This document shows positions 18,012 through 63,712 of a DNA stretch of 64,000 bases, one piece after another. The notes beneath the pieces were generated by a model. The model had not been told where the DNA came from. It saw nothing but the letters and a program-made list of their open reading frames with translations, and did not search any database. The translations under genes and the position numbers were made by a program. The DNA lies in assembly GCF_964204865.1 (NCBI RefSeq), contig NC_135257.1, positions 5,518,001-5,582,000 of the forward strand, written 5' to 3'. This DNA is from Styela clava (Eukaryota). Within the stretch, counting starts at the first letter, position 1. Each line of letters begins with the position of its first letter.

Positions 18012-18156
18012 TAAAAGTTTTCAAACGGGCTTCAAAATTCAAACGATTTCAAGTCTCCAAATATAATTTGTGAAGTTTTCAATGATATTAACGTTAATAC
18101 CAAAATTCTCAAGTTTTCAACCAAAGGGTTTCAAACATTAATTCGGGTTCTCAATA

Positions 18157-21165: not shown

Positions 21166-21243
21166 TGGATCAAATTATTGTTTCATTTACAACGTTTAAT
21201 TTTTTGGAATATATTCCCTGGGTCATATATTCGGGTGGGGGTA

Positions 21244-33917: not shown

Positions 33918-36678
33918 TTATTTTTGACACAGAACACCGTGCTCTTTCGATTCCGGAGAAAGATTGTACATTCCTTGGGGTTCTTTAGAAGATTCGTTGT
34001 AAACTTGGAGCTGGATATTAGATAATGTACTGCTCGGATTTGGATACCCAGAAATCCATTGTGTGAATGGAGCAACAGATCCGTCTGCAAGCCTCACCGT
34101 TAGAAACTGAAACAGAAGAATTCCAATATAATAAATTAATATTTAGTATTAATATTTATTCTCTATATATATATATGCAAGATTGGATTTCAAAAATAAA
34201 TAGCCTATAAATCCAAAAAAAAAGTTTTTTTTTGACTGCTTTCTGATTTTGCTTTACTAATTATTATATGTTATTACTAAAAAAATATGTAATACATTTT
34301 GAAATGAACGTAATGTCACATGAATTTTAAGTTTATTGGCAGGATGCTATACTTTCATATATATTTATATAAATTATTTTCGAACTGATGTTGATTTTGA
34401 AGTTTAGCATGTTTTGTTTATTTGATCGATTATGGGGCTCTAACTGTCAGGTGTCCAACTATTTTTCAAATATACTTGTAAAAAACCTTCTCTTTGTTGT
34501 CGAAGCAGTATACAAAAGTAAGTTAAACGGTACGTTCTTCTTTAGATGTACTGAGCCTGAAACTTAATTACTAAACTGGTTTATTTACTGTGGATTCACT
34601 CAGAAACATGAGCAATTTTCGGACCTTACTTATTTATATCTCAAAAGCTCAGCTGGCACAGCCGACTAAACAGCCGTCTGTTTTATCATCATCGAATGAT
34701 TGATTTATTTTTTCAAGTCGCTTGGCTTAATATTTGAAATCTGCACTCGCATTAAATCAGTGTGGATTCGAAATTCAGTTATTTAAAACAGATTGATACA
34801 AATTAGATTAGAATCAGTATTACTACTAAATATTTTTCTAAAAATATCGAAACTCTCTAACAAGTGCCTTAAACTCAAAATAAAATACCTGAAATTTATG
34901 CCGTTAGGATACTGGCAGCTGAAGCGATCTTTTCAAATATTTATCAAGAATTTTAATTCAAAACGGTTATGAACTGGACATATTTCGTCCCCCTGATAAA
35001 ACAAGAGAGCTACGCCCAAATATATGGACACGTCTGTTCGCAGTACAGTACGGTTTACCGTACCGTCAGATCACAGTTTAAAAATATATTCACACCAAGC
35101 GGAGCAGTACAGTAGGATAAAAAATGGCGTCAGATGTCCGCAGAACGTTCGGAGACGTCATAGCAAACAAAAATAAATCTTACAGAGCTAACAGAAACAT
35201 TTGAAATAAATAAAAGTAATGTCCTTCTGGAGAAAAATCACATCTTTAACCACTATAAATTTCAAAGCAATTGGTCCAGTGATCAAAGAGAAAAGCGGTT
35301 TTTTAATATTTCCACTAGGTGTACAAAAAGTGTCAAAGAACAACAAGAACAAGAACAACATAAAAACAAAACGATCGTTATGTCCACTAAACGTGTCCAA
35401 TAAGAAACTTACCTTGGGGCTTATGGTCATTCCAAGCCAGACGTGTACCCAGCTTTGCGAAGGAGGAATCAATGCTCGAATGTACTTCATAATTTGTTTA
35501 AAATGTTGTGAATCCTGGAAGAACGCTATCTTCCCTTCTTTCCGTGTGCATATTACAGATGCTTCGTCGAAGTTTACATTTCTAGAAGAATGTAAAACAG
35601 TCCAATAGCAAGTTTTCCCGTATGTAACACCAACGCAAATCGATTCTTGGGCATCAGTCTCGAGAGCTTTAAAAATAAATGTGAACTTGTTTCAAAAAAT
35701 ATAACTTGTAAATAATTTAATTAGTTATGACTGTTATGTAAATATAAATTCATTACGTGTAGAACTGTATTGTGTATCAAATGTGTGTTTGATGTGAGAA
35801 ACTATTGTTATTTAGGAAAGAGAATTTGACTTACATTTCGAAGCATTTCTTTGTAATTTGAGAACTTGCTCTTCCAGCTTTTCTACTCGTCTGGTTAATG
35901 AACCAGTAGCTGTTTATAAAACACATTGTAACTAATTTTGATCAATGGATTCGTTGTTATCGAGCTCTAATTTTATCATCGCATCCAACCGACCTCTTTC
36001 CAGATAATATATATATATATTATGAATCGAATAGAACTCGCAAATCTATCGTTCCAGCAAAAGATATCTTATTTGAAATATAGGATGCTTTCTAGACAAT
36101 TCCTTTTGTTTACTGAACACTGCGATTGGACATCTATATAAATGCAAGACAAATACCTTGACTGTAATTTTATTCTCTTGAAAAATTTATTTTATCAATT
36201 ATAGTCGGGAATTATAAAATCCTGCAACGGCTTAGCTGAATATTACCATTCAGTATTTCTATGGAAGCTGCAAAAATATTTTGAAATTAAAAAATGTAAT
36301 TTTAAATTAGTAAAAATATCATAAGCCAAGAAAAAAAACTTGAAAACAATTGCAATGATTAAGTAGTGGTAGAATAATATACAAAACTCTTCACAAATTC
36401 CGTTAAAATAGTAATTTATCATTGGGTCAAATAAACACAAACTTACTTTGTTCAATGATTTCTTCAATTTTCTCATCCACCATTTTGTAGTTGACAACAC
36501 CTGGCTCACCTTTTTCACCCGATAGCCCGCGTTCTCCTTTAAATCCTTGTGGCCCTCGTTGTAAAGTTGTTGGTATGTCATTAACTTCGATTGTTTTGCA
36601 GATCATATGCTTGGTGTTTCCGTAAACAATGTTTATCAGATAACACATGAACATAATAAAAACACGTAGGTTCTGCAT
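33918..36678 (-). CDS. Mini-collectin copy C, intact, ~249 aa
   Basis: Exons 36678-36447 (signal peptide and 7 Gly-X-Y), 35909-35835, 35666-35413 and 34106-33918. Introns are GT-AG and the spliced 750 nt are in frame, ending GVLCQK*. Confidence 0.88.
35000..35403 (-). mobile_element. HINE copy
   Basis: Same termini and microsatellite as 11359-11638. It is absent from the paralogous intron position in copy B (~24188). Confidence 0.72.
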
Positions 36679-38668
36679 TGTATTAGGCCTAGATTTCACT
36701 AAAAAAGGTTATGGATTATTTTCTAGGTTGGAAGATAACATTGTGAAATTACATTTTTCAAATTCAGCTAATTATGCAATAGCAATACTAAAAACTACAA
36801 ACATTTTTGATTATTCTTCAACCTAGTAAATGTATTTGTATACAAATAGATTTAAAATCGATTTTGAACCATTTTCAATTATGTTATTAAGTTATGCTTC
36901 AGTATTGTAAGAGGTACGTTACTTTACTATCAGGGTTTACCGGTAAATATATATATAACATGAAAATATGATGTACAGTGGCATAAAGAGCCCAAATAAT
37001 TTCTGTTATAAATTCCAAATATCATGCTATTAGTATAAAAACATTTATTAAAAGAATTACTCGAAAATAAAAAAATGACTTTGAAGCATCCCGGGGCAAA
37101 AAAACTCTCCTATTTCATTTTAAGCTAATTTAAAATGTGGAAAGTTTTTTGGGTTCACGCTGTAAAATAAGTAAATAGTTAATGTGCCCAAAGCTAAGTA
37201 TTTTTTCTTTGTCTCTTTTGTAAACTAATTATGGAATGTCTGCTCACGTTTGTTATTTGCATTCAGTCTGATTTGGGAGAATATTGAAAAAAAAAATTAG
37301 AAACATATACAAAGCCAAATAACGTTCAATGTTGTTTTGAAGTGGAAGTCTTTGTCTCGTCTGAAGATGATTAGATATTCCAATAGATAAACGTGCCTGT
37401 AAACGCTTCCCTTGCTCGTACATCAGATAAATTGTCATTTTTAATTTGATATTAAAAGTATTATTGAGGGTGGAGTGGGAGGGGGGCACCCTGTACATGC
37501 CAAGATTCTGGAAATTGCGCTTTCTTTTGCTATTGTTTTCGTCTTCCTCAAATCAGAATTAGGTGTAGGCTATATGGTATTTTTGGCACATATATAATTA
37601 TGGTATTTCTGGCATTTTTGGTACGTGAGCTGCTTGTATAGAATGTCTTCATTGACTTCATTGTCTTTGTGGATGAAAGCTCATGAGAATAAACCGTGGG
37701 TGCATCAATCAACGTCTTTCCAAATAAAATTTGAGTTTTAAGGATTCGCAGTATTTTTGCAAATTTGTCCTAAATAAATACAATTTTCCATGGAAAATGA
37801 CCCATAAATGACTGGTATTTTTGGAATTTTGAAATGATGTGTGTTTAAGAACAAATTTCTATTTTTTATTCACAAATTGTTTTGTAAAATTTTATATATA
37901 TACCACTTATTCAAAAAAGAAGCCCGATTTTCACTCCCGAAAATACGTCATCTATTTCTGCATTGGGAATTATCAGACCGATAGTTTTTGCATTAATCGA
38001 TACATACTTTTTGGCGAATGTACTGCGTGGAATTTGAACGGAATTACTTAGAATTTTCTCAAACTTCGCCTTACCTTCCAATATATATAAATAGCAATTC
38101 GATGACGGGTATTTTCAATTCTGGCAAAAAAAGCAGTTTTAAAACACATTGCGCATTAACAGTTTAAGATGCCTAATAAGTATACTTTGTTCTAGTTGTT
38201 TTGTTGCAATGACATGAAAATTGCATGAAGGAAAATCCTGTATTTTTACATTTCCCGCCACCGCTGATGCATTGATGTCATGAGGTTTGCAGGTTGAAAT
38301 TTTTCTCCTAATGAAAAACGTGGTATCCCTTCATTATTCCCAATATATATAGTTTGCCGATTGTGGTTTATCGACATCGTTAACGTCGTTTATTACTTCC
38401 CGATTAATGCTTTTCGTTTTATAAAGTTAAAATAAAAATAAAATATATCGTGAATATTGCAGACTTTGTATGTCGTCTGTACGGCGTTGTTATTGTCCCT
38501 CATCGCGAATAAAATGTGGACAAATAAGAGCAGATAAACTCATTAGCATACGTCGCAAAGCACCAGTTGATAAGGCAGTAAGCGATATTGCAGGTTGAAT
38601 TGGAAATAAAAACAAGATTTTGTAAAACGAATACTCAAACTGTGCATGTAAAGTCTTTCCAGTAGAAG

Positions 38669-39262
38669 ATGATAATTCTTAAGATATTTGTATTTGTTGT
38701 TGTTTTTTACTCTACCCACTCGAGGTTTAACAGGGACGTTCAGATCTCCTTCTTCTGATTGTACCCCAACATGAATTAGAAAAATAAATGTCTTTTCGTC
38801 TAGACCAGGGCTACTCAACTGGCGGACCTCGGTCCGAATCCGTGCCTTTCGAGTATTATATTTGGACCTCAGCTGCTTTGAACGCATCATTTAATTTTAT
38901 TTTGTAATAACGATGTAATGCATTTTTCGCTAAACCACTATTTTGATACCAATATAAGGTTTTCAGAGCATCGACTCACCTGTTTACTCTCTTAGCATTT
39001 TCTAATCAGCAAGATGTCAACGGTGGCGTGACAACTGAAGTTTTAACGGCTGCTTGGATATCTTCCACAGATTTTTAGACATGGCGTATTGAAGAGTCTG
39101 TAACTCAATGTTTGCTTGCAACTATTAATTTTTTTTAAAACAAATTTCTGACAAATTCGAATGTTATGAGTACGATCATCAGATCGAGTTTATGATGCGA
39201 TACGGGATCGTGGCAATGGGGAAGACGGTACAAGCTGTGTGCACTGCACTTTCACCAAAGGT
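38669..39262 (+). pseudogene. 5' relic (exons 1-2) of a poly-LDLa paralog
   Basis: ATGATAATTCTTAAGATATTT matches 51268. It has a deletion, the donor GT changed to GG, the exon-2 acceptor AG changed to TG, and deletions in exon 2. Flanks ~38100-39540 align with ~50640-51910. Confidence 0.85.
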
Positions 39263-39541
39263 AGATCAATTTATTAAAATTCATACAGGGATTAATAGGC
39301 CATATTCACTTCATTCAACCATGAAGCTGTAAGCATTAGGTGAAAACCCATGAAATTAATACAACCGTGATTGATAATGTCATTACATTAGAGTCATAAA
39401 AAATCGAAAGTTCGTGATTGGAAATACTTGTAATGTCGGTTGAATCAAGAAATTACATAAATATGAGAAGGAAAATGATCGTGTTTTTGCTCATCACCAT
39501 CTACACATCAACAGCATATGGACGCTATTTTGGTCTATTCT

Positions 39542-44432: not shown

Positions 44433-47400
44433 ATGATGAAGTTAATTCTATCAGCGATTCTCGTCCTCTATGCCGAGTTAGCCAGAGGTACGTAGCATTT
44501 TAAGTTGAAATAACTCAAATATGTACATATTTCGAACAACAGAACTGAGTTCTGTCAAAAAGAAAAAAAAGTCAATACATATGTATGAAAGTATTTGATT
44601 CTGAGAGCATACATAATTTATTCATACGAAAACGGTTACGCTATTTTTGGTGTATTATAGCAGTCAAATAATTCACGGTGCCTATATTTCCTTTTGTGTT
44701 CAACAATTATGCACCAAAAACAAGCACCCAATCTAAGCTTAATTAATCTTATGTGTCAATTGATAAATATTTTGGAAGATAAATTTACCAGCTTTGCATT
44801 TAACAAAGTTATTGTTTTAGGTCTCGAAAAGTGCATGATTCCAGCTTTATGCAATAACAGGCAAATACCAGCTTGGATACCTTTTCAGGTACTTTTGGGT
44901 GCGTGTGACTCAGAGTAGGTTTACCCTATATCAAATCTAAACTACTGTTTTAAACACTGATATGAGCATAAAATGATGTGTTGTGAATTTTATGTACCGC
45001 TATATGAATTCACATTTGTATTACATACAATATCACATTTGTGTTACATACACGGTTTTGTCAACGTTGAGCTATTTTCAAAAAAAGTATATTTTAAAAT
45101 AAAAACAGTAATTTCTTTGGCTCAATCAGCAGTATTTCTGATATTCGTTTCATGCAAATACAGTTTTCAGCTTACATAATGTATTTTGAAAACATCACGC
45201 AATTTGAACTAAACGCCCAATGCCCCACCATATATGATATAAAATAATGATTGCATTGAATATATGTGCAGAAATTCAATATAATTTGACAAATTTTTTT
45301 TCCAGCCGCAACAATTCAACGATGACTGTGATCGAAGACTAAAAGATTTGCAAGGTTGTCAAGGTTCCGGTTGTCTTGCCTCGTAGATTTATGTTTGACT
45401 GTTTATGATTACAGCTTATTCAAATCTCCGAAAAAATTAATGTATATATAATTGCAAGTGCGAGCCCCGTTTATCAGACAATAAATGAATCTACGTTATT
45501 CAGACTACAATCACTTGTATTGACGACGGAACAAATTGCGACTGATCGCCTTGGAGATGGTGAAGAATAGTGCGACAATCGCATTTTATTTGTAGTCAAT
45601 GTTCAAAATATTATAACGCTTTTTGCAAAATGTTTTTATTTTATTTTATATAATTTGACTTTGATCCAGTGGTCCGTCAGTCGAATGTTACTGATTTTAA
45701 AAAACTGCTTCACCATATGATTATTTTACCTTCAAATATAATATTAATGAGTATTCTTTTCTTGTCTTATGCCAGACACCTTTAAATCAGAAAAAGAAAA
45801 TAATTATCCGTGTGTTTAACCATTGAAAAAGGTAAAATATATACTCTATTTTGAAAACCATTTTTATTATGTAAATGCTTTCATTTTCTTAGACCGTCAC
45901 GATTTATTGAAGAATCAACTCTCGATGTTCTCTAAACAGCCACATTTTTCTGAAAAAATTGCACTTACCGCAGCAAATGCACAACCAACAACTGATGTAA
46001 TGAACACCATTCAGTCATTTGATGCAACAAAAAACAATTCACATTACATTAACAACTATTCAAACAGGACCTGATAAACAATTGACAACTGCCATGCAAA
46101 CAACTGAGATGCAACGAACAGTAAAACCAGGTGCGTGCGCGTGCTTATAATTTGTTCGAAATATTGTTCAGCAAAATGGTATTTTCGCACAAAAATTGAT
46201 TCTTTGATTCAGAATTTATAATAAAATAACTTGATAGCAATGCTCAAATATATGAACACATAGGTTAAATGTCATTGAAAAAGTTTGTGCAATTTAACAA
46301 CAATTTTTTTTTTTTCACAAACTTATTTTGATAACACGATAGTTGGAGGGTCTCCCTAAAACCAGGCACTTGCGAATTCAGGCACTTTGATATATTTTAT
46401 TTTTACCGTACGTCATTAGGGTTTCCAATTTACCTGACAAGATAATTAGACTTTAACATTGATTACAAAATATAGAAATCAGGCAGTTGTGAAATTTCAG
46501 GCTCTATTTTACTATGTATCTGATTACTCTAAAGCAGAAATTTAAATATATACACTTTGTATGGTTAAATTTACAACATTTTGGTAAAATACAATACCGG
46601 TTGTGACTGATGGAGACGTGTCATATTTCGCAAGTGCCTGATTTTTCATTTTTCTTGGTGACAGTTGCCATATTTTTTCGCAATTATTTTCTTAAATTAT
46701 TTGCGTCAGAACTTACTATTCTTTGCTTTCTAACGCAAATTCATTGTTCCACAACAATTTGAGCGTTTTTATTAATGCAATGAGCAATACCATTTGACAA
46801 CATATGGTCAACCATCGTACTTTCTGGATTTATTTGAAATTGAATATGAATGATAAAATCTGGCAACCTCAAGCACAAAATGCTAAAATCAGGCAAAACC
46901 TTGGTCAGACGAAACGTTACAGAAATATATTTGTGTTAGTGTGCAGCAAGACTCTTAATAGTCTTAAATCACTTAGGATAGTTATCTTTACTCTTGCTAC
47001 AGCATTCTCGCAATATATATGCATACGGATCCGCCGGCACAAAAGCATAGAAGAAGGATAAGTAGTTAGTCTCGCAGAAACCAAATCATTAACGACTAGT
47101 ACTAGTTCATCTCGTAAAATAAAATCACAGTGTTTGACTAGTCTCAAATTGCTTTTAATATTTTGTCGTCTTTTTCAGCTTGTCCACGGTCTGTTTTCAA
47201 CTTTACTAGTCCTTCCCAAAAAACTGATTATGTGAGAATCAAAGTGCCAGTACCGGAATTCACTGACATATCAATATGCTCATGGGTTGAAGTATCCAAA
47301 ACTTCTTATAAACATATCCATACCTTGCTAAGTTATGCAACAATAAATTCTTCTAACACGATATTAATCGAGTTCATCAAGACGGCTAAAATAAAAGTAA

Positions 47401-47795
47401 CGGTTAACGGTATAATATTGATGACCCACAACATTGATGTCAGCTTCAGAACCTTTTTATGCTTCATTATGGCCACTGATACAAAGATCTTTGTGAATGG
47501 ATCTTTGAAGGCGGAATCAGAGATACACAGTAAGCCAATTCCAGGAAACGGTTTGCTCGTCATTGGCCAGGATCAAGATAGAATTGGAGGAGGATTTCGC
47601 GCTCACCAGTCATTTTTTGGAATAATTGAGAACATATTCATTTGGAATCGCGCACTTACTGACGAGGAAATGCATGAAATGCATGAGCATAAATGCAAGT
47701 GTCCTAATGATTACGTCATTTCCGCCAATCAAACTGTTTCCGTTACTAAAGGAAATGTGATAGCAACATATACGCAAGATTGTGTAGCTCCCTGA
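44433..47795 (+). CDS. Secreted pentraxin-domain protein with a Thr-rich stalk (frameshifted as assembled; possible pseudogene)
   Basis: Signal exon 44433-44487 (MMKLILSAILVLYAELAR), candidate exon 45306-45354, Thr-rich exon ~45893-46130 with an extra A in 46029-46034, and last exon 47179-47795 with pentraxin motifs (SICSWV, TLLSYAT, IFVNG, LVIGQDQDRIGGGF..QSFFGIIENIFIWNRALT.EEM). The pentraxin domain is a secure call; the upstream joins are less certain. Confidence 0.75.
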
Positions 47796-49547
47796 TCACA
47801 AATTGTGAACATTTGCTTAATCTACATTTTCTTATCAGACCAATGCTTTCAATACCAGATTCTTCTTCTTCACCCATTTGGCAATAAACGAGGGAAAAGC
47901 TTCCACCTCCACGGCCATTGCAGCCCATCTTGAAAGTGATTATTTTTTATCAGTCCTGGCTGACGAATATACTGAATGTGATTAATTTTTAAATCTTTTA
48001 TGATTGCACACAATTTTACGACACTGTACAGAGTTTTGTACTACAGTTTAAAGATATGGATTTTTAACCAACTTTATTTCTAATTCTAATATTTCTAATT
48101 TTAAAATTGCGTAAATTATATATTAAATATCAAGTAAGTGGATGGTATATTCAATTATTTTCGGATTTCAATTTAGTCAAATCATGCATTATTACTATTC
48201 ATTTTCATGTGTAGCTGACATTTGGTTATGTCACATTTGTTTTCTTCTTCGTATCATTATTATGATTAAATTGTATTATTATTTTGAATGATTTACACTA
48301 TCAGTAGATGTTCAATGACGTATGGAAGTTCATTTATTTCGGTGGAATGTACATATTTTTTGTTAACTCCATACAAACGAGTCGGGTTTTAGATAAGTTA
48401 ATTCTTACAAACATATTTTAAAATTGCGATGTATTATTAAATTTTGTGTCTCCAAGATTGTCAATATTAATTGCTCGCGTAAGCAAGGAGTTTGCAAGAA
48501 ACTGAGAAAAGTCTCATTTTTTGAATAGTTAGGTTGAGTGTGCATCATACTTGAATGGCATTGATTGGTTCTGCAGTACTATTGAATTCAATATGAGCTG
48601 TAAATTTCCGGCAGCATTTGGATCGCCTTGAGTTGGTGTTGTCGCGATCTATTCACCTTATTTCAAAAGAAAACTATACTATAAACTACCACAAGACAAT
48701 GTTTTATTTCATGTGTACGAACGACATCTATGCGCTTCATTGCCGATGTCATCTTGAATAGTGAAGAATAAATAAGACTATAGGATTCTACAGGCAACTA
48801 AAATACGATGTCAATATTTCTAAGGCTCTCCAAGAATAGTAGTAAACCCTCTAAATTTCACAGAAGACATGAACCACACACCAGTCAATCAATTTGTATG
48901 TTTTTCCAAATTATACTAGCGTGTTACCAGTACAGGTCAGACATGTGAATGATAACCATGTGGAGATTAGATCAAGCTACGCTATTTTTCTACAGTGCGA
49001 TTCATTTCTTTGCAACATTTTGGAGTGTAATGAACAAGTTTGTGGGTGATTTAATACAATGTTCAAAAGAAACGAATGAAAAGAGTTGCATGAAAGTTTT
49101 TAGATCATATTCAAAACTTACGGTCTAGTTTGACACTTCATCAATAGGTTATTTTATATCTTTAATTTTGAGATTAAAATTAGGAAAAAAATGTTAAAAA
49201 ATTGGGAAATCTAAATGACAAGAACGACCTTTATTGAAATTGGATCTCGACTTCAGTTTGTATCTCCTAAAATACAATGAGGATTTCTTGAAACGAACAA
49301 CCTAGTATATATTGTAGGCTACGTTATATCATAGGAAAATTATGAACTGAGAATTGAACTAAGAATTCTCCTTAGAGATGATGATGATAAATATTAATTA
49401 TGTTTAAACAATATGCAATATTGCTTTGTAGAAAGATTCAAATATTTTGGCCATTCTTATATGTCGTCTCGAATATTAATTAATTGATGTTGGTAACTAT
49501 GTAAAATGTTCCGAAATCAAATTTATTACTCAAAGTATAGGATAGGA

Positions 49548-49665
49548 TAGGATTTACATATTCATCACGGGGAGAGGAAAGCCGGTAAGACGGCTTAATC
49601 ATATCGCGAACCACGGCTTCTCGTCCGGTTACCAGTCCCAGGTATGGTATGGGATTAGGTATTTG
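49548..49665 (-). repeat. SINE/LINE-type 3' end with an (ATCCT)n tail
   Basis: AGGATAGGATAGGAT tail followed by a GC-richer structured segment. It is absent from the paralogous intron at ~60990. Confidence 0.45.
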
Positions 49666-49926
49666 TTTTCGGAAGCATGGACTTGATTTAAATATGGCAT
49701 AAAAAGTATACGACTTACTTACAATATTATATTATTTGTCACTCAATTACCTCTAATATGTTAGACTAGAGCATTAGTCCTCAATGTGCTCCATACGGAG
49801 GCCCAGGACTCCGTGAGAGAAACTTAGCGGCCTGTCCGCAAGCTATTCATTTACTTATAAAAATTCCGATTTGGTTAATTTTGTGACTGTCCAAAGAAGC
49901 AATAACGACATCAATTTAATTTGGCA

Positions 49927-50035
49927 ATAGTAGTGTCGAAATGTGGCAAAGAAGCTGTAATTCAAATAGGACATTATCTGAGTTCCAACAGACGATTTCA
50001 ATTACCGCCTTGTTGCCACATTTCGACACTACTAT
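49927..50035. mobile_element. 109-bp micro-MITE or hairpin
   Basis: Perfect 23-bp inverted repeat ATAGTAGTGTCGAAATGTGGCAA/TTGCCACATTTCGACACTACTAT, with imperfect extension inward. Confidence 0.75.
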
Positions 50036-51267
50036 ATTAAAATGATTGACATATGTATTTCTCAAATACAAAGCAGCAAATACATCCGAGTAGTTAAATG
50101 AAGTAATTTCTATTTACTCAGAAACATTAATCGTGAGTAGCAATTTTTTTGTTTTTATAATTTCATTGTGTGGCTCTGTATATACCAGTCAACCTCTTCA
50201 TGGGTTCTCTTCATAACCTCTTCATAACACAAAAAAGAACCTTTGTGTTGGAAGATGAATCAGTTGAAGTTGATTGCGCATATTACGGGAATTGATATAC
50301 ATGGCAAGGCTCAACTTCAGTAGCTAATTTCAATTATCATTTAATCTCATCATTCATACATTGTTTCGTAATTCCTGTGGTAGGTTATAATTTCATGGAA
50401 TATGAAACTACCACCGAGTATCTTATACCACGTTCACAGAGTGTTTCATTTCATATTTTACCTTCAACTGCCGAAATGTGAAACGAAAATCCAGTATCAA
50501 ATTTCCTGTTTTAGTTGCAGGCTCGATTGTGAATAAACTGCTATTACTTTATATATATTAATAAAAAATTTTGAGCTCACATAGTTAGCAAATTGAACAA
50601 AGTGGAATGGAAATACTCAGAATGTTTCTCAAACCTAGCCATTCAAAATAGGTTATTTTTAATTCTGGCAAGAGAAGCAGTTTTTTATCTTCAATTGCTC
50701 ACTTCGAAAAAGTAGATTAGTTTCAAGAAAGATTGTACAATAATAAAAGTTTACGATGCCTAATAAGATTTTTTATTCTTTTTTGTTTGACGCAATAACA
50801 TGATCATTGCTTGAACGACAATCATGTAAAGAGGTATTTCCCGCCATCGCCCACACATTATGTCATAAGGCTTGCGGGTTGAAATTTTTCTACTTAGTGC
50901 AAAACGTGATATCCCTTGAAGGATCTCAATATAGGTCACCGATTGCGATTTACCGACGTCGACAACGTCGTTTAATCGAAAATATTACTTCCCGATTACT
51001 TGTTTTGTTTCTGAATCAAAATAAAATTCTACGATTTGGTATAAATCAAGCACATCGTGAATTTTGCAGACTTTTATATTTCGCCTACGGCGTTGGTAAT
51101 TTTCCACACCTCGACAAAATTTATCCAAACAGAGCAAATAAATTATGAGAATACGATGTCAGTGAACCGGTTGACAAGGCAAGGCATGCAAGCAATATTG
51201 CAAGTTGAAACTTTTCAAAAAGAATAACCAATCTTTTTATTTAAAGTATTTCGTTGGCAGAAAGAAG

Positions 51268-54200
51268 ATGATAATTCTTAAGATATTTATATTTGTCGTT
51301 GTTTTTATAAACAAGTGTTTTACTCTACCTGCACCAGGTTCAACAGGTACGTTCAGAAATCTGTCTACTACTAATCGTAATTTTAATATGAATTAGAAAT
51401 CTAAATATCTTTTTCCATCATTGGCGTGGTCTCGGACAAATTATAAAAGTTTCTGTAATTCAATGTTCGCTTACAACTCTCCAATTTTTTTGAATACAAT
51501 TTCAGACACATTCGAATGTTATGCTTACGGTAGTCAGATTGAATTATTTCATACCAGAGTTTGTGATGGGATACGGGATTGTGACATGGGAGAAGATGAA
51601 ACAAACTGCCGCACTTCGCCAAACGTAAGCCAACTTTTTTTTAAATTAATACTGAAACTAATAAACCACAATTACTGCATTTAGCAAAGTAGCTTCAAGG
51701 ATTGAGATAAAAACCCATGAAATTAGTACAAATGTGGTAGATAATGTCATTACATTAGTCCAAATTATAGAAATATCGCATTTTGAAATGATAGTTATGT
51801 CAATTGAATCCAGAAATTACGTAAATAAAGGAAGAAAAAATGTTTGTGTTTTTGCTTATCACCACAATTACATCTACAGCTTATGGGTAATATATAGATC
51901 TATTCGAAGTAAGTCTTGGCGGAATACATTTTTGAACTTGGTATTATTATTAATATCATTATTATTCATTGCCGCTTATAACTGGCGAACTTTTGTGCAC
52001 CAAATCTATGATATTTCTCGTTAGATGTCCAAATGCTCCTTCCCATTATGAGGACTTAAAACTACCAACTGTGCTTTCCACGTAGCTTCAAATACGTGAA
52101 TATTTTGTTAAAGCAAGTATGCTATGGGGTTAATCAGATTTCTGCAGATGTTAGCTAAGCTTGTTTGGACATGTATGTATATAATTATAGGCGCTGCCGT
52201 AGTATGTGAATCAAGATGGCGGACACCGGAACGTAGTATGTGTACCAGGTTAGGGTCAGGACATAATTTTATTCCAATTTTCCTTATTTCAGTTCTACTA
52301 AGAGTTCGTGGACTGGCCGACTCCCGTAGTATTTGTACTAAAATTATGGCCTAACCCTAACCTGGTACACATACTACGTTCCTGTGCCCGCCATCTTGGT
52401 TCACATACTACATGAGTACTTGATTATATACTAAAAAACATTTATGCAATTCATGTGTATAAAAAGTTCAATCATGTGACAAAATTTCCGTCTATCCTTA
52501 AAAAGTTTAGGTGCTTATAACATTTCTCGGAAACTTCCATGAAGTTGTTCATATGTGATGTAAAAAACATTTTGAGTTTTACGGTATGCATTTATTTTTA
52601 TCGCCTTGCCACCCACACCAAAACCTAAGACCTTCCCTTTAGACTTGTGAAATAGCGCAGTTTCAGTGTGAAAATAGACGATGTTTGCCAAAGACTTGGG
52701 TTTGTGATGGAACTGATGACTGCCGTGATGGAAGCGATGAAGCGAATTGTGAAGGAGTCAGTAATTTTTATATGCTTTCTGTTGTGAGCTATTCGATTAG
52801 TCTGCAGATTACTGTTTTTGTTCATCAGAGCAAAAATTGCCTTCTACGTTATCTGTGGAGACAACTGTTTTTCTTTATTGGTATTTTTCCTGTTTTTCTT
52901 TATTGAGAAATTATACCGCTTTACTTCGATGACCCGATTTGGTCAAAATTCACGTGCAAAGATCAACATTGACTTACAGCAGGTTTCAATAAATCACACA
53001 TCCTGAAATAATGTCAACTGATTCCAGTGTGAATTGTGATGATAACATATCCGCATCGCCTCAGTTTTGAAAATAGAGCTCGATATCATTAATTAACTAA
53101 GATGAAAATTTCATTGATTAAAGGTTACATGCACCAGTGACTACTTCAGTTGTGGAAATGGAATTTGCATGCCATCCACATGGCGATGCGACGGCCAGAA
53201 CGATTGCCATAACGGTAATGACGAACTTGACTGTCCTGATGACAATGAAAAGGTAAGTTATGCATTCGTGTATTCAATTTCATATCAAGGTTTATGAAAT
53301 GTTATTGTACCTAACTATCCTGAACTAACAGACAGATGAAGTTAGGGGTATGAATCGGCTTATAATTTTCAATATATCACATTCTTTGCAAGGTAGTGTG
53401 AATGAGTTGAGAACCAAACCGGTGTCTCCAAAATGTCGTGTCCCACTTGTCCCACATTATCATATTTTTCAATTTCTAATTTTGAATATAGCGCTCCAAC
53501 ACCGTTTTCGTAAATTTAGAATTGTCGAACCAGATAAGTACGACTAGTAAATTTTGTATTCTATGGGAATTTTCCAAGATATTGGGGACGGGGTGAAATA
53601 TTATTTTGACCACGTAGAAATGCCATTATTGCCGATTTATTCAAGTATTTAGTATCAGTGTTTTATTCCAAAGCTGAGTTACGTGAATTCTCAACACTGA
53701 GTATTAGAGAGATTACTAATTTGCGAAATTTTTAATTATTATTATTTAATACGAATGTAACACGGACACGCTAAAAAATTAAAAGCCTAAAAATGACAAC
53801 TATCAGCTAATATTTACTGCGGCCTTGGATTATGACAAGTCCCACTTGGGAAGTCGCCATTAGGAAATAAAAATCGCTGTATTGTTGCGAAGTTTTCAGT
53901 CTTCAAGTAAATTTCGAAAAATAAAATTGTCACGGCGATCGTTTCGACGGCCGACATCCCAAATACGGTTGTTTGAAATAACGATACTCATTATTCGGTG
54001 TTGTGTTCGTTGAAAATATTCGAATAATTCGACTAAACAAACTATTTGCCCACCACTAATCACGACGCATGTTAATTAGCATTGAATGGCGTTATAGTGA
54101 ATAAGTAATAGTTTCACATTTAATGCAATTGATCGGCGCTACATGCGAGCGTGTTTTTGTACTTACTGTACTATAAACGATTTTGACGCTACTGACATCC

Positions 54201-57200
54201 GCAAGTTACACTTCTCTCAAAATTTATTTTCACGATTTCTAATGTTCTATTTTCAAATGCGGGTACTGCTGACTACGGATTCATGGTCGATATTTGAAAT
54301 AGGACTTGCAAAATATTCCCCATAAACCGCCAGGCACATAAGAGGCGGGCTACACGTAACTGTGGAATTTCGCTGTGAACGACCCATTTTTTTCAGTTTA
54401 TTGAACGCCTTACGTCGTCGTGAATTGCATTTTGGGTGCTCTGTTTTAATTTCACCGAAAATTTTGCGCCCATGTAGGTAACTATCCTATATCAACCCGG
54501 CTATATTCCGGCACTGATAAACCAAGTCATAATTTGTCACCCATGTCATCAATAACCAAAACTTTTGTGATTGCTATTACCAGAAAGCCTATGTTGAATG
54601 AAAGTGCGACCTGCGGTTTTACTCAGTTATCTTTATCTGGTCCTCCTGTATTAAATGTTGCACACCCTTGATTTTAACTACTTAAATTGAGAATAATTCA
54701 GGTAGTCTGTAGACTAATATGATATCGTCAGGCTAATAACCGTCATTTTTTACGGTTTTGAGTTTTTTGTAAAATGTAATAGGTAAGGTATTTATGTAAT
54801 TCTGTGCTGCAATTGTTTCGTCAAAATGAAGTATCCTCGTTACCGCATGACTATTGTGACCACACAAAGGCAAAATAACCTCGGCGACCGATTTTCAAGT
54901 TTTTGCATCTCAGATTCTTGCTTAGCGCTTATAAATTTGAATATTTACTACAGTATAGGAAGGCGTGCACTTGTGATATTCACTGTCTGAGTCCAATTCA
55001 CCTTATAGTTGGCTTTTATATAGGGGGACATTGCTGATTTATTCTTTATATTTATTTTTAGTCTTATTTCGGTGGGTGTGCAGAGCGTGTTATATTGATG
55101 AAACATATATTCTTAAACATAAAAAATAATGTATTTGAAACAGATTAGCTATTTTGGAGATTACACATCTTAGATACTGAGAAATACATTCGTTTTTGGA
55201 TTGTTTGGTTTTCAGGACTGGTGCATATAGTCAAGTTGCAAAATTGCGTATGTCCCCAGTCATAGACACATTTCTGCTTAAGTCACAGTGCGCCATTATG
55301 ACGTCACATAACTGCGTCATACAAATTAAGTTAAATCTGGCTACGATCAAAAAATTGAAGCATGGCAAAATATTGACTCACAATGGCATAACAATATCAT
55401 TAGGAAGTTTTTTACGTTTTTCTAAAAACTGCTAAAATTGACTTACGCAATTCGGTTATTAGCGTGACGATATGTAAAAGTTAATAATGTCCCGAGCAGA
55501 TGTTGACATTATCTATCGAACCAAGAAATTATTGCCCCAACTAACATGAATACTACCATATTATTTTATGATATTTTTACCATTCTATTGCATTTTTCTC
55601 TCTGATTTTATATGTAACTGCAATACCTTATATTTTTTCTGCCAAGATGTTTGTTACTTTAGTGCAAGAATCAATTGCTTTTACTATTTTATGCCAATTT
55701 CTTTTTATTTCTATGTTAAGTTCCATTATTTTTTTCATCTTCGAGTCAATTCGTATTTAATGATACTAGCCCAATTGAAAAAATACTACAGTCACAATTT
55801 CTCAAATCACTGTAATCATATATTTTTGGTGCATTCACTACAAAGACATAAAGTCATGTTTTTGGTGAAATTAGTCTGCTTTACGAATGTGTCTTTCTAA
55901 CAAAAATTAACGAATTGCTTCAATCGTTCATTAAAAAATTGAGCATATACTATATGTAAACATAGGCTTATTCGTCACGTATATTTTCTACAAATATCTC
56001 ATTCTTCGAAGACACGTTTTCCAAACCGGGAAAAAATTCATCCCTGGCGAATAACTTTGTCGTTTTGGCGAGGAATCGGCTTTGTATTTGCTGTAGTATT
56101 ACTGATTTTACAAAGTTCGTTATGCTTATTATAATATAAACCACACATTCAATTAGAAAATACTGGAACTGTACAAAATCGGTTTTTCAACTAGCGCACA
56201 GACAAGTTTTTATGCATAGTGAGGGAAGAATATAAGGTTCAAAAATTTGAGAAGGGAGAAGTTTAACGAAAAAGGTTGGGAATCACATGACTTGTACACC
56301 TACATCTTATTCATCAGATGTTTTGTCCACATGTATCCCATTTACCATACATACCATTTAACAAATGTTTTGTCTACCAACAGCTCATTCGCAAAGTGTT
56401 TTCTCTTCATACATGTTGTTCAGCAGATATTTTTACTACATACATCTCATTCACGTGATACATCTCCTATTTTGTCCACATACATCTCGTTTCCATAATG
56501 AATCAACAGCTCATTCGTGAAGTGTTTTCTCTTTATATATTTTGTGCAGAAGTTTTGTCTATGTATATCTCATTCGCCAGATAATTTGTCCACATGAATC
56601 CCATTTATCACACTTCTCATTCACTAGATATATTTTGTCCATATATGTCTCGTTTTCCTCATGAAACAGTCGCGGTGATTATTCGCTTGTTAAAAAAAAC
56701 GACTTTTTCAGCGAGATTTTTCTGTTGCGTAAAATATTCAACCCATGGCAATTAACTTAATTGTGTTTAATGTAACTCACGGTGGCTTCTATTCAATACA
56801 TTATTACTCTAAAAAACAAATTGAATATGTGGACATAAACACATGAGATAAACTGCCTGGTTAGTTCTGATAGGTATGTTTGCAATCTTGCTAATGCGTT
56901 ATCGCCGTTAGGAATCCGTATTTTGCCATTTTGGAAATTATAAAATTTTGTACTCGTAACACCGAACCGCACTATCGCAATGCTGTCACTAAGATTATTT
57001 TTAAGATATAACCGTTATTTCTCACGAAGTAAAATATAATTTAGCACCATAAAACTTGATTGGATTAATTAATTTATCATCACAATCCGCGTCGCGTTTA
57101 CAACTTTGTATATTGTTGGGACAAGTGGTACACGTGCTACACGTGGGACAAGTGGGAAAAGTGGGACACGACATTTTGGAGACACCAGAACCAAACAAAT

Positions 57201-60200
57201 TTGAAGTCGGTGTCACCTACTTACAAAGTTCGCCATGGCGTGATATAACAACAAACTGAGAAAGACATAAAATAAATTAATGTGAACAATTTAAAATCGT
57301 ATTTATTTTTATTTTGGAGTGCATCTCAAAAAACGAATTAATTCTATACTATAAGCATAAATCCACATATTCCCCACTGGTATTCAACATGAAATTTATT
57401 TCAGCTACGAGTATGTGAAGTAACGGAATTTCGTTGTGGAAGTGGAAGTTGTATTTCTAAACATTGGGTCTGCGATTTCCATAACGATTGCGGAGATAAC
57501 TCTGACGAATACAATTGTACTTCATCACCTGTGAGTAATTGGTTACAATTTTTTTTTGGCTACTGACCGTCAAGGCCTCGAGTCTTCATAATACTAACCC
57601 TCGAGGTAGGTTTCGGCCAGGGCTTGAATCAGTTTAAGTTAATTTGGTCAGAAGCACTCTATCGCCCATCTTACCGCAATGGCCTTTAGTAGCAAAAATA
57701 AAAGTTGGAATTGCCAACCTCCAGCTCTTTCAATTTCTAGTGTTTTTTTTCGTTATCAGACTTCTACCTGTAGTTTTATAATTTATTCTCGTAACATTTA
57801 TGCTGAATATTGTATAAAATCATAGATGGTTTGATAATCGAAAAAAACCTTATCTTCACTGATATCACTGAAAACTGATGCTTTTCTTTATTGAACGAGA
57901 ATTCGGGGTTATCTTCACGTGTCCGACTTGTTCAAAATTCACTTGTAACACTTGACGTCGACTTTGCAGCATGTTTCAGTAAATTATCTTTTTTATAACA
58001 TTATTAAAATTAAACGATTCCAATCTGAACTTTGATAATTTGTCATATTGCAACAAAATAAGGATATTGGGTATATCCGATTTCTATTCAATCGTTTCAA
58101 TGTATCTTATAGTTATTACAAAAACATTGATGTTGGCTTTGAAAAATAGAGAGTTTATTAATAAGATGTGAATCTTATTGACTGTAGGTTACTTGCATCG
58201 GTAGCTACTTTAGTTGTGGAAATGGCAAGTGCGTACCACGCAAATGGCGATGCGACGGCGAGAACGATTGTCATGACGGTGAAGACGAAGTTGGCTGTCC
58301 TGATATCAATGACAAAGTGAGTTATACTATTTACCATGCGTTTTCAAACTCATATGAAGTGTTAGTATAGTTACAAACTCAAATCCATGTCCTTGGACAC
58401 ACGTAGTTGGGTTATTTAGAAGGTTTATAATAATCCAGCTTGTCCGATTTATTTCTCATTTTTTATACTATTTGCGGGCTGGTGTATCGGAAATGCAAAC
58501 TGACCAAGTTCAAACGTGAAGTCAAGAGCACCAACTTATAACGCCAGCCATGACACGGATGTTTATAGCAATGATGTATTCCCTTGTAAACTCTAAAACG
58601 TAAGATGTATTCTAAACGTCAATTCATTTTATACATTGTACTATAGACTTGCAATAAACATCAGTTCCAATGTGGAAATGAGGACTGTTTTTCTAAGAAT
58701 AGCACTTGTGATGGCAAGAAAGACTGCTCAGATGGCTCAGACGAAAGTAACTGTGAGGTAAGGATAAAATCAGCCATATCATTTGAACAAGACAGCAATG
58801 CTCATATCTAACCGCAGCAGTAATCTATGCTGGGGATGCAACGAAAACTACTCAGCGGCTTTTTCAAATGCTTCAAATCCTTATTACGAAGCAAGACCCA
58901 TCACTGCGATAGCAATTTATTTCCGTACCCGTGAGGCAGAGGTAGGCAGAAGGTTTCCGTAGTGCGGTGTGCGAGATATTTTCAAAAATACAAAAGGAAT
59001 TCATTTTCATTGAATTTTCCACATAGAGAAATGTATTAATGTGAATTTGATTATAGTTATTTGGTCATTTGTAACGCGCAAGATTTTTTACGATAAGTGT
59101 GGTCGGTTCTTCAGTTTTTCCATCAGTATAAATACGGTCGCTTGTGCCTCATAAATATTTAATCGGAGTTTGGTGAAATATTTTGTTTGTTTATGTACTT
59201 GTGAAAAATGATGTTTGCTTAAGTGTATTCACTCATTGGGAGTTCGTTCACCAGTGTTTTATTTGATATGTTCTTGTTAATCCTTTAGACCAGTTCTTTT
59301 CTGCTTATATGGACAAAATAATTGTCAAAGTTAATTCTTATTCAGCTACAGAAAACATTCATTTGTAGTACGCAAAAATAAAATATTGCAAACCCTTGAC
59401 GCGGGGCCTTTTCTGGGCATTCGGTTTGTCAAAACGATCGGCGGACCAGTCCATATGGTAGCTTGATATACGCAAAACCAGGGAAATTTGGGATGGCATA
59501 GTGAGCCCTATGAGATCATGACTCCTTCCATGACTTATAGTTTTGCTTTTGAAATCGATTCGATCCATTCATATTACTCATTAATAATTTTCCACAACAA
59601 CCAGAATCGCCCCAACAAAAACATACCAATTCAGAAAAACCCATGAGTTCAAGTAGAATGATACACATTATCTGCAGTAGGTTCAATTATGACTTGTTTC
59701 TCTAATTAAAAATAACACCTATTTTGAATTTAATTCTAGATTCGAAATAACTGCGCATTATATAATTTTGAACTACATTTTTGTGTTTCAAATCTATTGT
59801 TTTCAATTTTGCCTATTCTTGTAGTAAAATAACTCTAATTTCATTCAGAAATGTAAATCAGGAGCATTCAAGTGTTGGGATGACAGTAACTGTATTTCTG
59901 ATTTTTCGAAATGTGATGCAATCGAAGATTGTGATGATGGTTCAGATGAAATGTTCTGCCCGGAGGTAAATATATTTTTGAAACTAACTTGAAAAAGATT
60001 CCATTAAATTCCAAGCAACGTTTTCGTCACAATATCAAATGTTCAGCTCACTCCGGAACGAGCATTTAATAATGCCACAATTCGTTTTCATGCTCATTCA
60101 TTTCGAAATAATGATTTCGTGTTTTACCAAACTGTGTAGAAACAAGAGAGCTGTGCTCAAATATATGGACACGTTAACTAGAGCGAAGCAGTATTTACCT

Positions 60201-61152
60201 TTGACGCCACCGGTACCCACAAAAAACTCCGAGTTCCGCGTAGAAATAATTTACAGAATCAAACCGGACAGCCAGTATTCTCATGGATAAAATAATACAG
60301 CGAAATTTTAGACGAAATATCAGATTTCATGCGAAATTTAGAAATGAATAAAAGTAATAGCCTTCTGGCAAAAAAATCAATCTTCACTCACTGAAAATTT
60401 GGTCAAGCAATTGGTCAAGTATTCGAAGAGAAAAGCGGTTTTTTTAAAATGATAGAGACAACTAATAATGAAAATAACAATAAAAATTTTGAAACGATCG
60501 TTATGTCCACTACGTGTCCAATAAAGAAAACTTCGTCATTATCTTTCTGCAGTGCGAAGAATTCCTTTGCAACACCAGAGAGTGTATTCCTAATGAACAA
60601 GCATGCGATGGTATTCAACAATGTTCAGATGGAACGGATGAAAAAGATTGTGAAGTTTGTAGATGATATTTAAATCTTACAGTATATATATATATGTGTG
60701 TGTGTGTATGGCTAATAACACCACGATCCTGTTTGACACTTTATTATTAAGTTATATTATACCTTTAATTTTAAGAAACAGCAAAACGTTAGGTATGCTG
60801 AGATCCTGAATGCCGCGAATGACGTCATTTGCAATGACATCCCGACTTCAGTATACTTCAGTATACATTAACGCAAAATTGTTACCATAACGTGTATTGA
60901 AAAACGTTATGGCATAGGCATGGTTTGAACTTTTGGAATTGGAATTCTACTCAGAGATGATGATAAATATTTATCGTGTTTAAATAATTTGTAATTTTCA
61001 CTCAATTACCTCTATAGTATGTTCGAGGATGTCCACCAAATCACTTTCAATGTGACAATGGACAATGCAGACCAAATAAATGGAAATGTGATGGAATTGA
61101 TGACTGCGGGGATGAATCGGATGAAATCGATTGCACATATTACGGGAATTGA
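51268..61152 (+). CDS. Secreted poly-LDLa protein (signal peptide and 9 LDL-receptor class A modules, no TM)
   Basis: Exons 51268-51346, 51506-51624, 52643-52756, 53124-53252, 57405-57530, 58188-58316, 58647-58757, 59849-59965, 60553-60654 and 61018-61152. Each exon after the first encodes one C..F.C..C....CD...C.D..DE..C module. All introns are GT-AG and in frame; the protein ends DCTYYGN*. Confidence 0.88.
52190..52420. mobile_element. Palindromic MITE
   Basis: ~70-bp inverted arms GTAGTATGTGAATCAAGATGGCGGACACCGGAACGTAGTATGTGTACCAGGTTAGGG (52199) and their reverse complement ending at 52411. Confidence 0.85.
53420..57187. mobile_element. 3.8-kb non-autonomous MULE-like element in LDLa intron 4
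   Basis: TIR GGTGTCTCCAAAATGTCGTGTCCCACTT / AAGTGGGACACGACATTTTGGAGACACC with a 9-10-bp TSD (A)GAACCAAAC (53411-53419, 57188-57196). No transposase ORF is seen. Confidence 0.85.
57565..57685 (-). repeat. Possible tRNA-derived SINE head
   Basis: The minus strand reads GGCCATTGCGGTAAGATGGGCGATAGAG...GATTCAAGCCCTGGCC, resembling degenerate Pol III A and B boxes. Confidence 0.35.
60141..60524 (-). mobile_element. HINE copy
   Basis: AACAAGAGAGCTGTGCTCAAATATATGGACACGT...GTCCACTACGTGTCCAATAA. Partial copies lie at ~62521-62600 and, inverted, at ~10224-10282. Confidence 0.72.
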
Positions 61153-62282
61153 TATATATATATATATATAATCTATGAACTTGACTATGGGAGCTTATTC
61201 CGATTATCATTCATACATTTTTTTTATGATTCTTATTGGAATAACCTAACTGATTTCTTGTAAGGTGATATCACCACCCTATAAACATCACATTCATCGA
61301 GTGTTTTGCGTCCATATTTTATCTTCGGTCGATGAAATACATAATGGAACGTACGTATAACATTTCTCATTTTATCAACAGACTAAGTTGAACTGGTTGA
61401 CTAGCAAAAATTTATGTCTATATTAACATAGTTATGGACTAACCTGGTCAACAAGTTGAGCCGATTACGTCTGCGCTTTAAACAGTAATAAACTGAGTAT
61501 ATGTTCCAAATATATGATTTCATATATTGGGCACACTCAATGGCAATCGCATGGTTCTCAAACCTGAATGAATTTGAGAAATAAATATTTACTGTTGAAA
61601 ATTCTGCATTAAGAAGATAGCTACGATCTACTACTCTAGGTTGGAAATTTTTCTCCAAGAACATTGAGTTCTGTGAAATTCACTACCACCTTGTTGTTTT
61701 CCTGATCATATTGCCCCTGGCATTTTAGTAATCTTGTAGCAAAATATTGTCAACCAACGAATATGCTTAAGAAATTAAGATTGAATATTAGCTACATCGT
61801 AGCAGTTCTTACAAGGCGACAAGTGTATCGGTCAAAATGAATAAATGTATATATATATATATTGGGTTTAATTGGACAGAATATTAAAGTGGATTGAATC
61901 TGATATTTACTATCAAGTATATACTTGAACTTGTAAATTCTTTAAATTTCTTTACGGCCGATATTGGGTACATCCAACTAAATAAGTGAGATAAATTCTG
62001 GGGCGGATTGTAAATACGTCAAAAATTGTGTATATTAAATGTAAATAATACATATTATATAAATATTCTTCGATTACGGATTATACACAACTTCAATTTT
62101 CGAAGAAAATAAATTTGGCCGTAGGCACTAGTCGTGGTATTATACAAAGTTGTGCTTTCTCAATTCTTAGTACATACATATTTACTTGGATTATCAAGCA
62201 ACAAACGAACCTACAGTTTTTTAGTCAACATAAATTTTCAGTTTAGGGCAGTTTAATTTTGTTACAGTGTAACAAAACTGCC

Positions 62283-63712
62283 ATGATAACTCTAAGAATA
62301 ATCGTGTTCATCTCGGCCTTGATAGCCAAATGTTATGGAATTCCGAAGCCGGGTATGTTTCAAATATTCTTGGTATCTTGTTTCTTGATATCTTAGGTTG
62401 GCTTGTTTTATAAGTATTTTCTTGGAGAAATGAGTGGGGAAATCTGTGACTATGATATCTGTGATAAAGCAATATAAAACAATGTGGCATTTATTAGCAA
62501 GATTCTGCATAGTCATGTACAACAAGAGAGCAATCTCAAATATATGGACCTAGCGAACAACAACAATCTTTGACCAAAACGATCGATGGGTTCACACTAT
62601 CAGCTCAATCCACAAACATATAGACACCGAGTCCGTTACCGTTTAAAACGCATGTCACCTGAAAATGCGTTGGCAATATTTTGTAAAATCTTCAACCAGA
62701 CAAGGTCCAGATTGAATTTGAAGATGATAGAAATAATAATGACTTATAAGACAATTCAATTTAACTATCAAAACCTGGAAACAATTAGTTCAGTGGATAA
62801 GATAAAAATTTTGTTACAACTACAATTGGAAAAAATGCAATAATTCTCTGTCTGAACAGTGCAAACGCGTGATACTTCTGCAAAATAAAAACGTGTTTAT
62901 TACGTTTCCTATAGACGTTATTCGTTGCGTTTCTTTCGGAAGCCAAATTGCTATATCCGGTAGAAGAGTTTGTGATGGAATGCGCGATTGTGACGAAGGC
63001 GAAGACGAAGAAAATTGCGATCAATCACTCCATCCATACGTAAGTCTACAATAAAAATGAAATGAAATTTTGAATCAACTTGTTCTCTATTTGAAATGTT
63101 GCAAGGTTTGTCCCATATAAGTTTCTGAACAATTCGCAACTATGCGTCTCGGTACTATGTTTTGCAAGAACGGTATTTTTTGTTAGTTGGTCATACCCAT
63201 TTTTGTCAGTACCTAACTCAATTAAGATGATGTTTGGTTATATCACCACATTTATGTCGTAGCGTTGAAATATTCGGACACAAAAGCGAATTTTTATCAG
63301 TAGCCTATCGGTAGTTTTTCTATCAAAAATAGTATTATTGTTAAATATCAAGTTTTTGACTGTAATTTAAATATGCCATCATGATAGTCTAAGTCACAAA
63401 TTCGACTTTGCAAAATAGATGTTTCAGAATTTTTGGATTGGTTTTAATACTCAATGTGAAAATTGCGATGTCGATTTTATTTTTTGAAACCGATGTATAT
63501 TAAAAACTTTTAGAAATTCAATTTAGAGGTAACGATAGTAGAAAATTATGGAACTAATGACATAGCTATTTGTGCTTTTCCGCCCCTCATCTTTTTGTTA
63601 GGATTGTGCAAAAAGAGAGTTTCAATGTTCAAACGGCATATGCTTACCAAAATTCCTGCATTGTGATGGAATAGAAGATTGTGGAGATGGAAGCGATGAA
63701 ACCAATTGTGAC
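62283..63712 (+). CDS. Second poly-LDLa paralog, 5' part (probably continues beyond the window)
   Basis: Signal exon 62283-62352 ([23 protein letters not shown]), exon 62915-63039 (CVSFGSQ...[17 protein letters not shown]) and exon 63602-63712 ([35 protein letters not shown]). Intron phases match the first gene. Confidence 0.85.

Follow-up and report, generated by a model that had tools for sequence, protein, structure and literature searches.

A tandem pair of secreted-type, LDLa-only genes with an all-phase-0 exon array in Styela clava

Background

LDLa modules of the LDL receptor family fold round calcium, and an acidic cage together with a tryptophan clasps a lysine of the ligand. A 64,000-nt stretch of the Styela clava genome (NC_135257.1, positions 5,518,001 to 5,582,000 of the forward strand, here called the window) raises the question whether such modules can make up a gene of their own, as a first-pass annotation proposed for the exons at 51268-63712, and what the product of such a gene could do. 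The locus contains two genes, A and B, which are an expressed (A), conserved gene pair, with a known domain stripped down and carried on an unusual all-phase-0 exon array. For their products, we assign a probability of roughly 0.5 to a role like that of shed LRP1, in which they would trap or carry lysine-rich extracellular proteins in solution, by multivalent, calcium-dependent binding.

Structure and transcription of gene A

Gene A consists of 10 exons at 51268-61152 (+), with every intron GT..AG, and specifies a product of 386 aa, which starts with a hydrophobic leader, continues with nine LDLa modules, each on its own exon, and ends five residues later at a TGA stop. Its features, in window positions, are:

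51268-51346 (+): exon 1, start codon and predicted signal peptide of about 19 aa (from hydropathy), phase-1 donor, exon 1-2 joint in 4/4 runs
51506-51624 (+): exon 2, LDLa module 1 with four Cys (first and third missing), phase 1 to phase 0
52643-52756 (+): exon 3, LDLa 2, Trp and acidic calcium residues present, phase 0-0
53124-53252 (+): exon 4, LDLa 3, Trp present, phase 0-0, DNA 80% identical to exon 6
53421-57186 (unstranded): insertion in intron 4, flanked by 35-bp inverted repeats with 34/35 matching
57405-57530 (+): exon 5, LDLa 4, Trp present, phase 0-0
58188-58316 (+): exon 6, LDLa 5, Trp present, phase 0-0
58647-58757 (+): exon 7, LDLa 6, ligand position without aromatic, phase 0-0
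59849-59965 (+): exon 8, LDLa 7, ligand position without aromatic, phase 0-0
60553-60654 (+): exon 9, LDLa 8, short first loop, Gln for one calcium Asp, 88% identity with gene B module 6, phase 0-0
61018-61152 (+): coding part of exon 10, LDLa 9 (Trp present), five residues, stop
61153-61981 (+): 3′ untranslated region (3′ UTR) as far as contigs reach, AATAAA at 61487, 61580 and 61840, the true end not fixed by the contigs

Intron 4 extends over 4.1 kb because the 53421-57186 insertion sits inside it. Transcript-type contigs were taken from four runs in three studies, with coverage of the window only and RNA status assigned from the 'RNA?' label and GT..AG joints. Contigs of gene A were present in 4/4 runs and joined 9/9 introns at the predicted sites, with seven introns joined in 4/4 runs, intron 4 in 2/4, and intron 2, the joint of which carries a six-base in-frame allele, listed in 1/4. 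The contigs continue from exon 10 across the stop to as far as 61603-61981, and a single 1307-base contig covers exon 4 to 61603, i.e. 451 bases beyond the stop. The ten-exon mRNA proposed in the first-pass annotation is thus found joined throughout and read into its 3′ UTR. No joint out of exon 10 was found among the 15 joints listed (69 further joints and 1082 loose ends lie beyond the list), and none of those listed leads into downstream exons for transmembrane, G-protein-coupled receptor (GPCR) or EGF domains. An in-frame stop lies upstream of the ATG, and separates it from the one in-frame Met, 41 codons up. There was no hydrophobic segment past the N-terminus (top 19-residue hydropathy of 0.41 versus 2.34 in the leader), and the gene model, Pfam matches, hydropathy and nine joined introns agree with the architecture first described, a signal peptide, nine LDLa modules and a stop, with no EGF, propeller, protease or transmembrane part.

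Allelic variation in the RNA-type contigs includes a Phe-to-Ile change in module 6 (58689, 4/4 runs) and a six-base in-frame insertion at 51617-51618, at the end of exon 2. A joint at 60650-61025 could have come from a hybrid A-B transcript, but this reading was rejected, as the letters of the joint equal the exon 7/8 junction of gene B itself; a glycosylphosphatidylinositol anchor or retention in the endoplasmic reticulum was also rejected, the tail being neither hydrophobic nor KDEL-like.

Gene B and a decayed copy

The diverged tandem paralogue recognised in the first-pass annotation is present, but extends beyond 63712: gene B begins at 62283, 1.1 kb downstream of gene A, and continues past the window to G000:C9:5593127, about 11 kb beyond it. 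Its 8 exons encode 295 aa, in the order leader, seven LDLa modules, three residues and stop. Three exons lie in the window:

62283-62352 (+): gene B exon 1, predicted signal peptide
62915-63039 (+): gene B exon 2, four-Cys LDLa module
63602-63712 (+): gene B exon 3, with five more exons beyond the window edge at 64000

The exon 7/8 junction is matched by the letters of one contig joint (run X1), with the remaining junctions being predicted, and the hydropathy outside the leader never exceeds 0.82, hence no transmembrane segment. The products of A and B are 56% identical over 288 aligned positions, and five position-matched exons gave a nonsynonymous divergence (dN) of 0.21, a synonymous divergence (dS) of 1.49 and a dN/dS of 0.14. 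Intron 7 of gene B measures 9.6 kb because a transposon with a DDE transposase frame lies inside it; this 8.6-kb element (G000:C9:5584228-5592833) has 306-bp inverted ends (97%), a THAP + DDE_Tnp_4 transposase frame and more frames on the opposite strand.

A dead copy of gene A lies upstream, in two pieces:

38157-39540 (+): 5′ piece, upstream region and exons 1 and 2, with frameshifting deletions and lost splice sites
48983-50465 (+): 3′ piece, decayed exon 9, interrupted exon 10, stop at 50293-50295, 3′ UTR

The dead paralogue had been noted before for its YGN-stop ending at 50295, and that ending is indeed shared with A (50254-50295 corresponds to the last 14 codons of gene A, stop included), but a pentraxin gene separates the two pieces. 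The proposal that the stop is ancestral is supported by this shared ending and by gene B (dS about 1.5), which likewise stops three residues past the last Cys. 'Family' is too strong a term: searches of the 377-Mb genome gave as close copies only the two intact genes, A and B, and the dead remnant (queries were the leader, module 1, module 8 and last exon, with the best candidates scored), and similar proteins are predicted in other phyla. A cellulose-synthase-family match above the cut-off accords with a tunicate genome. Scattered, decayed LDLa-like fragments in differing frames at 2971-4167 (+), with no clear kinship with A or B, were considered as a fourth copy and rejected, as their match to A is not above chance.

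Such short LDLa-only genes could be truncated pieces of a longer receptor gene, or annotation artefacts, since short database entries with LDLa modules alone are, in many cases, fragments of LRP8, SORL1 or LRP2 or short isoforms of these. In the 222 kb around A and B, LDLa-masked protein queries, which detected such exons in control loci and did not include seven-transmembrane (7TM) and leucine-rich repeat (LRR) exons, gave no EGF, beta-propeller, immunoglobulin or protease exon; this query set leaves the truncated-receptor explanation some room. It is, however, largely refuted, and we regard it as extremely improbable, given the contig spanning exon 4 to well past the stop, the stop position common to A, B and the dead copy, the start of gene B so close downstream, the absence of any other receptor exon found in the 222 kb, and the low dN/dS. 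Similarly, the layouts of an LDLa-LRR GPCR (GRL101/RXFP type) or a mosaic protease were not found, as in all three copies, the dead one included, the open frame closes behind the last module, and there was no protease exon near A and B (LRR/7TM exons were not searched by profile).

Composition and ligand chemistry of the LDLa modules

The PF00057 cut-off of 24.1 bits was passed by 15/16 modules of A and B. In gene A, 8/9 module exons passed (31-58 bits), with module 1 scoring 18.7, below the cut-off because its first and third Cys are absent; it reads as a variant LDLa module, one disulfide pair short. The best of five models of this module reached a predicted local distance difference test score (pLDDT) of 76, with the other four at 56-60, and its top Foldseek rows were LDLa structures, none at E<=0.001. 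Six Cys are present in 14/16 modules, the first module of each gene having four; all 16 close with DE, Asp follows the fourth Cys in 15/16 and precedes the fifth in 14/16. All mature Cys residues can be paired inside modules (52 = 8x6+4 in A, 40 = 6x6+4 in B). The mature chains are acidic (isoelectric point of 4.1 for both; 81 Asp+Glu versus 31 Lys+Arg in A), contain N-glycosylation sites, and consist for 92-93% of LDLa, with linkers of 2-8 residues where counted and no CUB or low-complexity segment.

In LDL-receptor repeats, the aromatic residue two positions before the fourth Cys and the calcium-bound acids grip lysines of the ligand. An aromatic residue occupies this position in 5/9 modules of A (Trp in modules 2-5 and 9) and 3/7 modules of B (Phe or Trp in modules 3, 4 and 7), and calcium-dependent binding of RAP or lysine-rich ligands is a putative property of these modules. 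The nearest solved structures by sequence are ligand-binding repeats of LRP2, VLDLR, LRP4 and LDLR. A and B share with the LDL receptor family, which gave their best PDB matches, the tandem cluster of 7-9 LDLa modules after a signal peptide, but have no EGF repeats, YWTD propeller, transmembrane segment or NPxY tail, and their inter-module introns are all phase 0, versus mostly 1-1 in the other LDLa genes of this genome. To judge from this architecture, they resemble a receptor ligand-binding cluster set free, and are not LDL receptor family members.

Between A and B, conservation is strong in the terminal modules, which could point to a role in signalling, as ligand or co-factor of a cell-surface receptor, comparable to that of Jelly belly or HEN-1. 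Secreted LDLa proteins can be ligands, but these two carry one LDLa module each, and the module number of A and B varies, making this very unlikely.

Intron phase and the origin of the array

Intron 1 of gene A is in phase 1, while its eight inter-module introns, all joined in RNA (8/8), are in phase 0, as are 6/6 predicted inter-module introns of gene B. The class 1-1 pattern of shuffled modules, with phase-1 introns on both sides, is thus found in neither gene. As control we used 40 other LDLa stretches of the same genome, picked from the 150 scored of 634 candidates and from another genome search, with splice sites predicted by one generic matrix, so that control phases are predictions. This gave 144 modules in 39 stretches, 91 with six Cys and 57 with both splice sites scoring above zero; 35 of these 57 LDLa exons were predicted to be 1-1 and none 0-0. 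The same matrix assigned 0-0 to 8/8 scorable modules of A and B, in agreement with the RNA.

Lone predicted phase-0 introns between LDLa modules do occur in four other gene types of this genome: two lipoprotein-receptor genes (five LDLa, EGF, propeller), a mosaic gene, and small LDLa genes whose tail is rich in lysine, with a four-Cys first module in 3/4 of these types. The receptor genes are located at G000:C3:15347000-15357000 (+) and G000:C3:13195000-13213000 (-); in both, five LDLa modules make up the first cluster, module 1 has four Cys, and the intron between modules 2 and 3 is predicted to be in phase 0. The former seemingly also has a sushi-like segment ahead of its anchor, and an NPxY motif. 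The small genes (G000:C16:9622000-9628000 (-), also L059:25900-27700) are two tandem copies, in which one four-Cys and two ordinary LDLa modules are followed by a Pro/Thr linker, a very basic Lys/Cys-rich tail and a stop; they contain one predicted phase-0 intron, an anchor was not seen in them, and they represent a second kind of apparently secreted LDLa protein. A different organisation is seen in L045, L046 and L047 (G000:C19:10.98 Mb, C4:12.93 Mb and C14:10.0 Mb), which have many LDLa modules per single long exon, in open frames of 432-808 aa, with several such genes in tandem on C19.

Their four-Cys first module and single phase-0 intron make the two C3 receptor genes a possible source lineage of A and B. 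As a putative origin, a 0-1 and a 1-0 module exon could have recombined by unequal crossing-over, which would generate a 0-0 exon. An all-phase-0 layout would allow modules to be gained or lost in frame (9 versus 7) and hinder in-frame capture of phase-1 EGF or propeller exons. Modules 3 and 5 of gene A are a recent duplicate. In a tree of modules (99 rows, 36 columns), 53/96 forks remained open, with one starred fork joining module 6 of gene A to a module of the receptor at C3:15.35 Mb. A more far-reaching proposal is that of a dedicated soluble decoy gene, tunicate-wide, in which a receptor ligand-binding cluster was re-phased from 1-1 to 0-0, could no longer be shuffled with exons for EGF, propeller or anchor, grew by self-duplication only, and soaks up lysine-rich ligands. 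We hold this to be rather unlikely; if true, such ligands could be, for example, lipoproteins, protease-inhibitor complexes or cationic peptides of the animal itself.

Relatives and similar secreted proteins

The best database matches of the LDLa array are 38-46% identical and belong to the LDL receptor family. No orthologue was found with single modules, a profile and a ribbon-worm seed as queries, a set in which the full-length spliced A was absent, so full-length orthologues may be missed. Searching exon 2 of gene A against longer proteins gave no candidate, and the best 120 of 5735 matches to an eleven-module profile were proteins of 833-1993 aa (LRP, SORL1, perlecan and similar). The ESM Atlas returned only generic LDLa clusters for module 1, and metagenome contigs matched the last modules of A and B at 11 loci, five with 44-53% identity over the whole module and six short and chance-like. 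In a short-protein search seeded with ribbon-worm P0030 (not gene A), a crude filter (leader, no anchor, little else) was passed by 11 of the 120 short LDLa proteins listed, about half of which appear to be fragments of LRP8, SORL1 or LRP2, or short isoforms of them. Complete-looking signal + LDLa-only predictions remained in ticks (P0127, P0225, P0231), record P0227 and the ribbon worm (P0030), none above 190 bits to A, compared with 275 bits for A versus B. The architecture as predicted is therefore not unique to A and B, and recurs in other phyla. The tick and ribbon-worm proteins have the same overall architecture, but are no nearer to A than generic LDLa arrays, and the likeness is probably convergent. 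An ascidian LDLa-only protein or phase-0 LDLa array was not described in the literature searched, whose coverage excludes most subscription papers and supplementary proteome tables.

The sea-urchin proteins proteoliaisin, SFE1 and SFE9 also carry LDLa arrays, plus CUB or low-complexity parts. They are, like A and B, of secreted type and LDLa-rich, with calcium-dependent assembly in their case, but are larger and egg-specific, and A and B have none of their additional parts. These proteins give substance to a role as extracellular-matrix linker in tunic, egg coat or adhesive, where an LDLa string would cross-link matrix proteins in a calcium-dependent manner; A and B are modular, acidic and secreted-type proteins with N-glycosylation sites. 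Proteoliaisin links ovoperoxidase into the sea-urchin envelope, according to an excerpt of PMC11361572, and a protease of the Oikopleura house has one LDLa domain, according to an excerpt of PMC3390340. Conversely, A and B lack free Cys, low-complexity and CUB segments and have short linkers, and an egg-only role is mildly disfavoured by the presence of gene A in all four runs, the tissues of which are not on record. We consider a matrix linker a possible but less probable explanation. Centipede venoms provide a further likeness, by description only: the excerpted text of PMC4379518 mentions secreted LDLA-domain proteins of unknown function with a one-lineage expansion, which differ by their venom context.

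Neighbouring features of the window

The window contains the following other features:

12233-13888, 25575-27219 and 35191-36708 (-): three tandem genes, each with a leader, a short collagen segment and a lectin-like C-terminal part
17539-21732: Bel/Pao-type long terminal repeat retrotransposon remnant, 473-bp terminal repeats 99% alike, DUF1759 and DUF5641 frames
44434-47795 (+): predicted secreted pentraxin-domain gene (Pfam PF00354), between the pieces of the dead copy

The three tandem genes are collectin-like by reading, as only the collagen piece has a Pfam match, which is below cut-off; a repeat array that takes in the N stretches splits the middle gene. The middle exon of the pentraxin gene (about 45893-46130) has stops in the frame read, and may carry a frameshift. 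The pentraxin and collectin-like neighbours, together with the occurrence of LDLa modules in complement factor I, bring up a special case of the trap, a humoral immune adaptor which would bind pattern-recognition proteins, complement-type protease complexes or cationic defence peptides. However, gene neighbourhood is weak evidence in animals, and neither a catalytic nor a lectin domain is present in A or B, so that we consider such an adaptor improbable.

A possible function as soluble trap

A role of A and B as traps or carriers is suggested by the way LDLa modules work in proteins of the LDL receptor family. The protein would be exported via the secretory path, each module would fold round one calcium ion, and the acidic cage and Trp of a module would clasp a lysine of the ligand. 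In A, the adjacent, Trp-bearing modules 2-5 and module 9 would supply avidity, and modules 6-8 would serve as spacers or bind something else. With no membrane anchor, A and B would be unable to internalise cargo themselves, and would hold ligands off membrane lipoprotein receptors or hand them to these receptors. This is how shed LRP1 and cleaved ApoER2 act, but here the agent would come from a dedicated gene. The evidence of purifying selection (dN/dS) is consistent with such a role, as are the Cys and acidic residues, intact in most modules, and the transcription of gene A in all runs. As precedent, the shed LRP1 ectodomain is called a soluble decoy in an excerpt of PMC11325810, and a furin-cut ApoER2 fragment sequesters Reelin in vitro in an excerpt of PMC7410921; both are anchorless soluble LDLa strings, from which A and B differ by their own gene, own stop, phase-0 introns and four-Cys first module.

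Several observations weigh against this function. The mammalian decoys are cut from membrane receptors rather than encoded by separate genes (excerpts of PMC11325810 and PMC7410921), and the ApoER2 fragment was not detected in vivo (excerpt of PMC7410921). The aromatic at the ligand position is absent in 4/9 modules of A and 4/7 of B, and the best-conserved module (A8/B6, proportion of nonsynonymous differences 0.06) lacks it and has Gln for one calcium Asp. This module may therefore have another job than lysine gripping, and its conservation is left unexplained by a simple lysine-trap model. In the module tree, A and B modules are neither grouped nor tied to a receptor, the 14 six-Cys modules needing 11 changes. 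The signal peptides of both genes are predictions from hydropathy, a minor longer isoform of gene A is possible given the unlisted joints, and the trap role itself is inferred from sequence and analogy.

The weight of the finding is limited, as it concerns two genes and a common domain, with a similar architecture predicted in other animals. Soluble LDLa decoys of mammals are described as by-products of receptor shedding, and A and B would place a dedicated gene for this purpose in a close invertebrate relative of the vertebrates. An outright decoy gene would allow the action of such traps to be studied cleanly.

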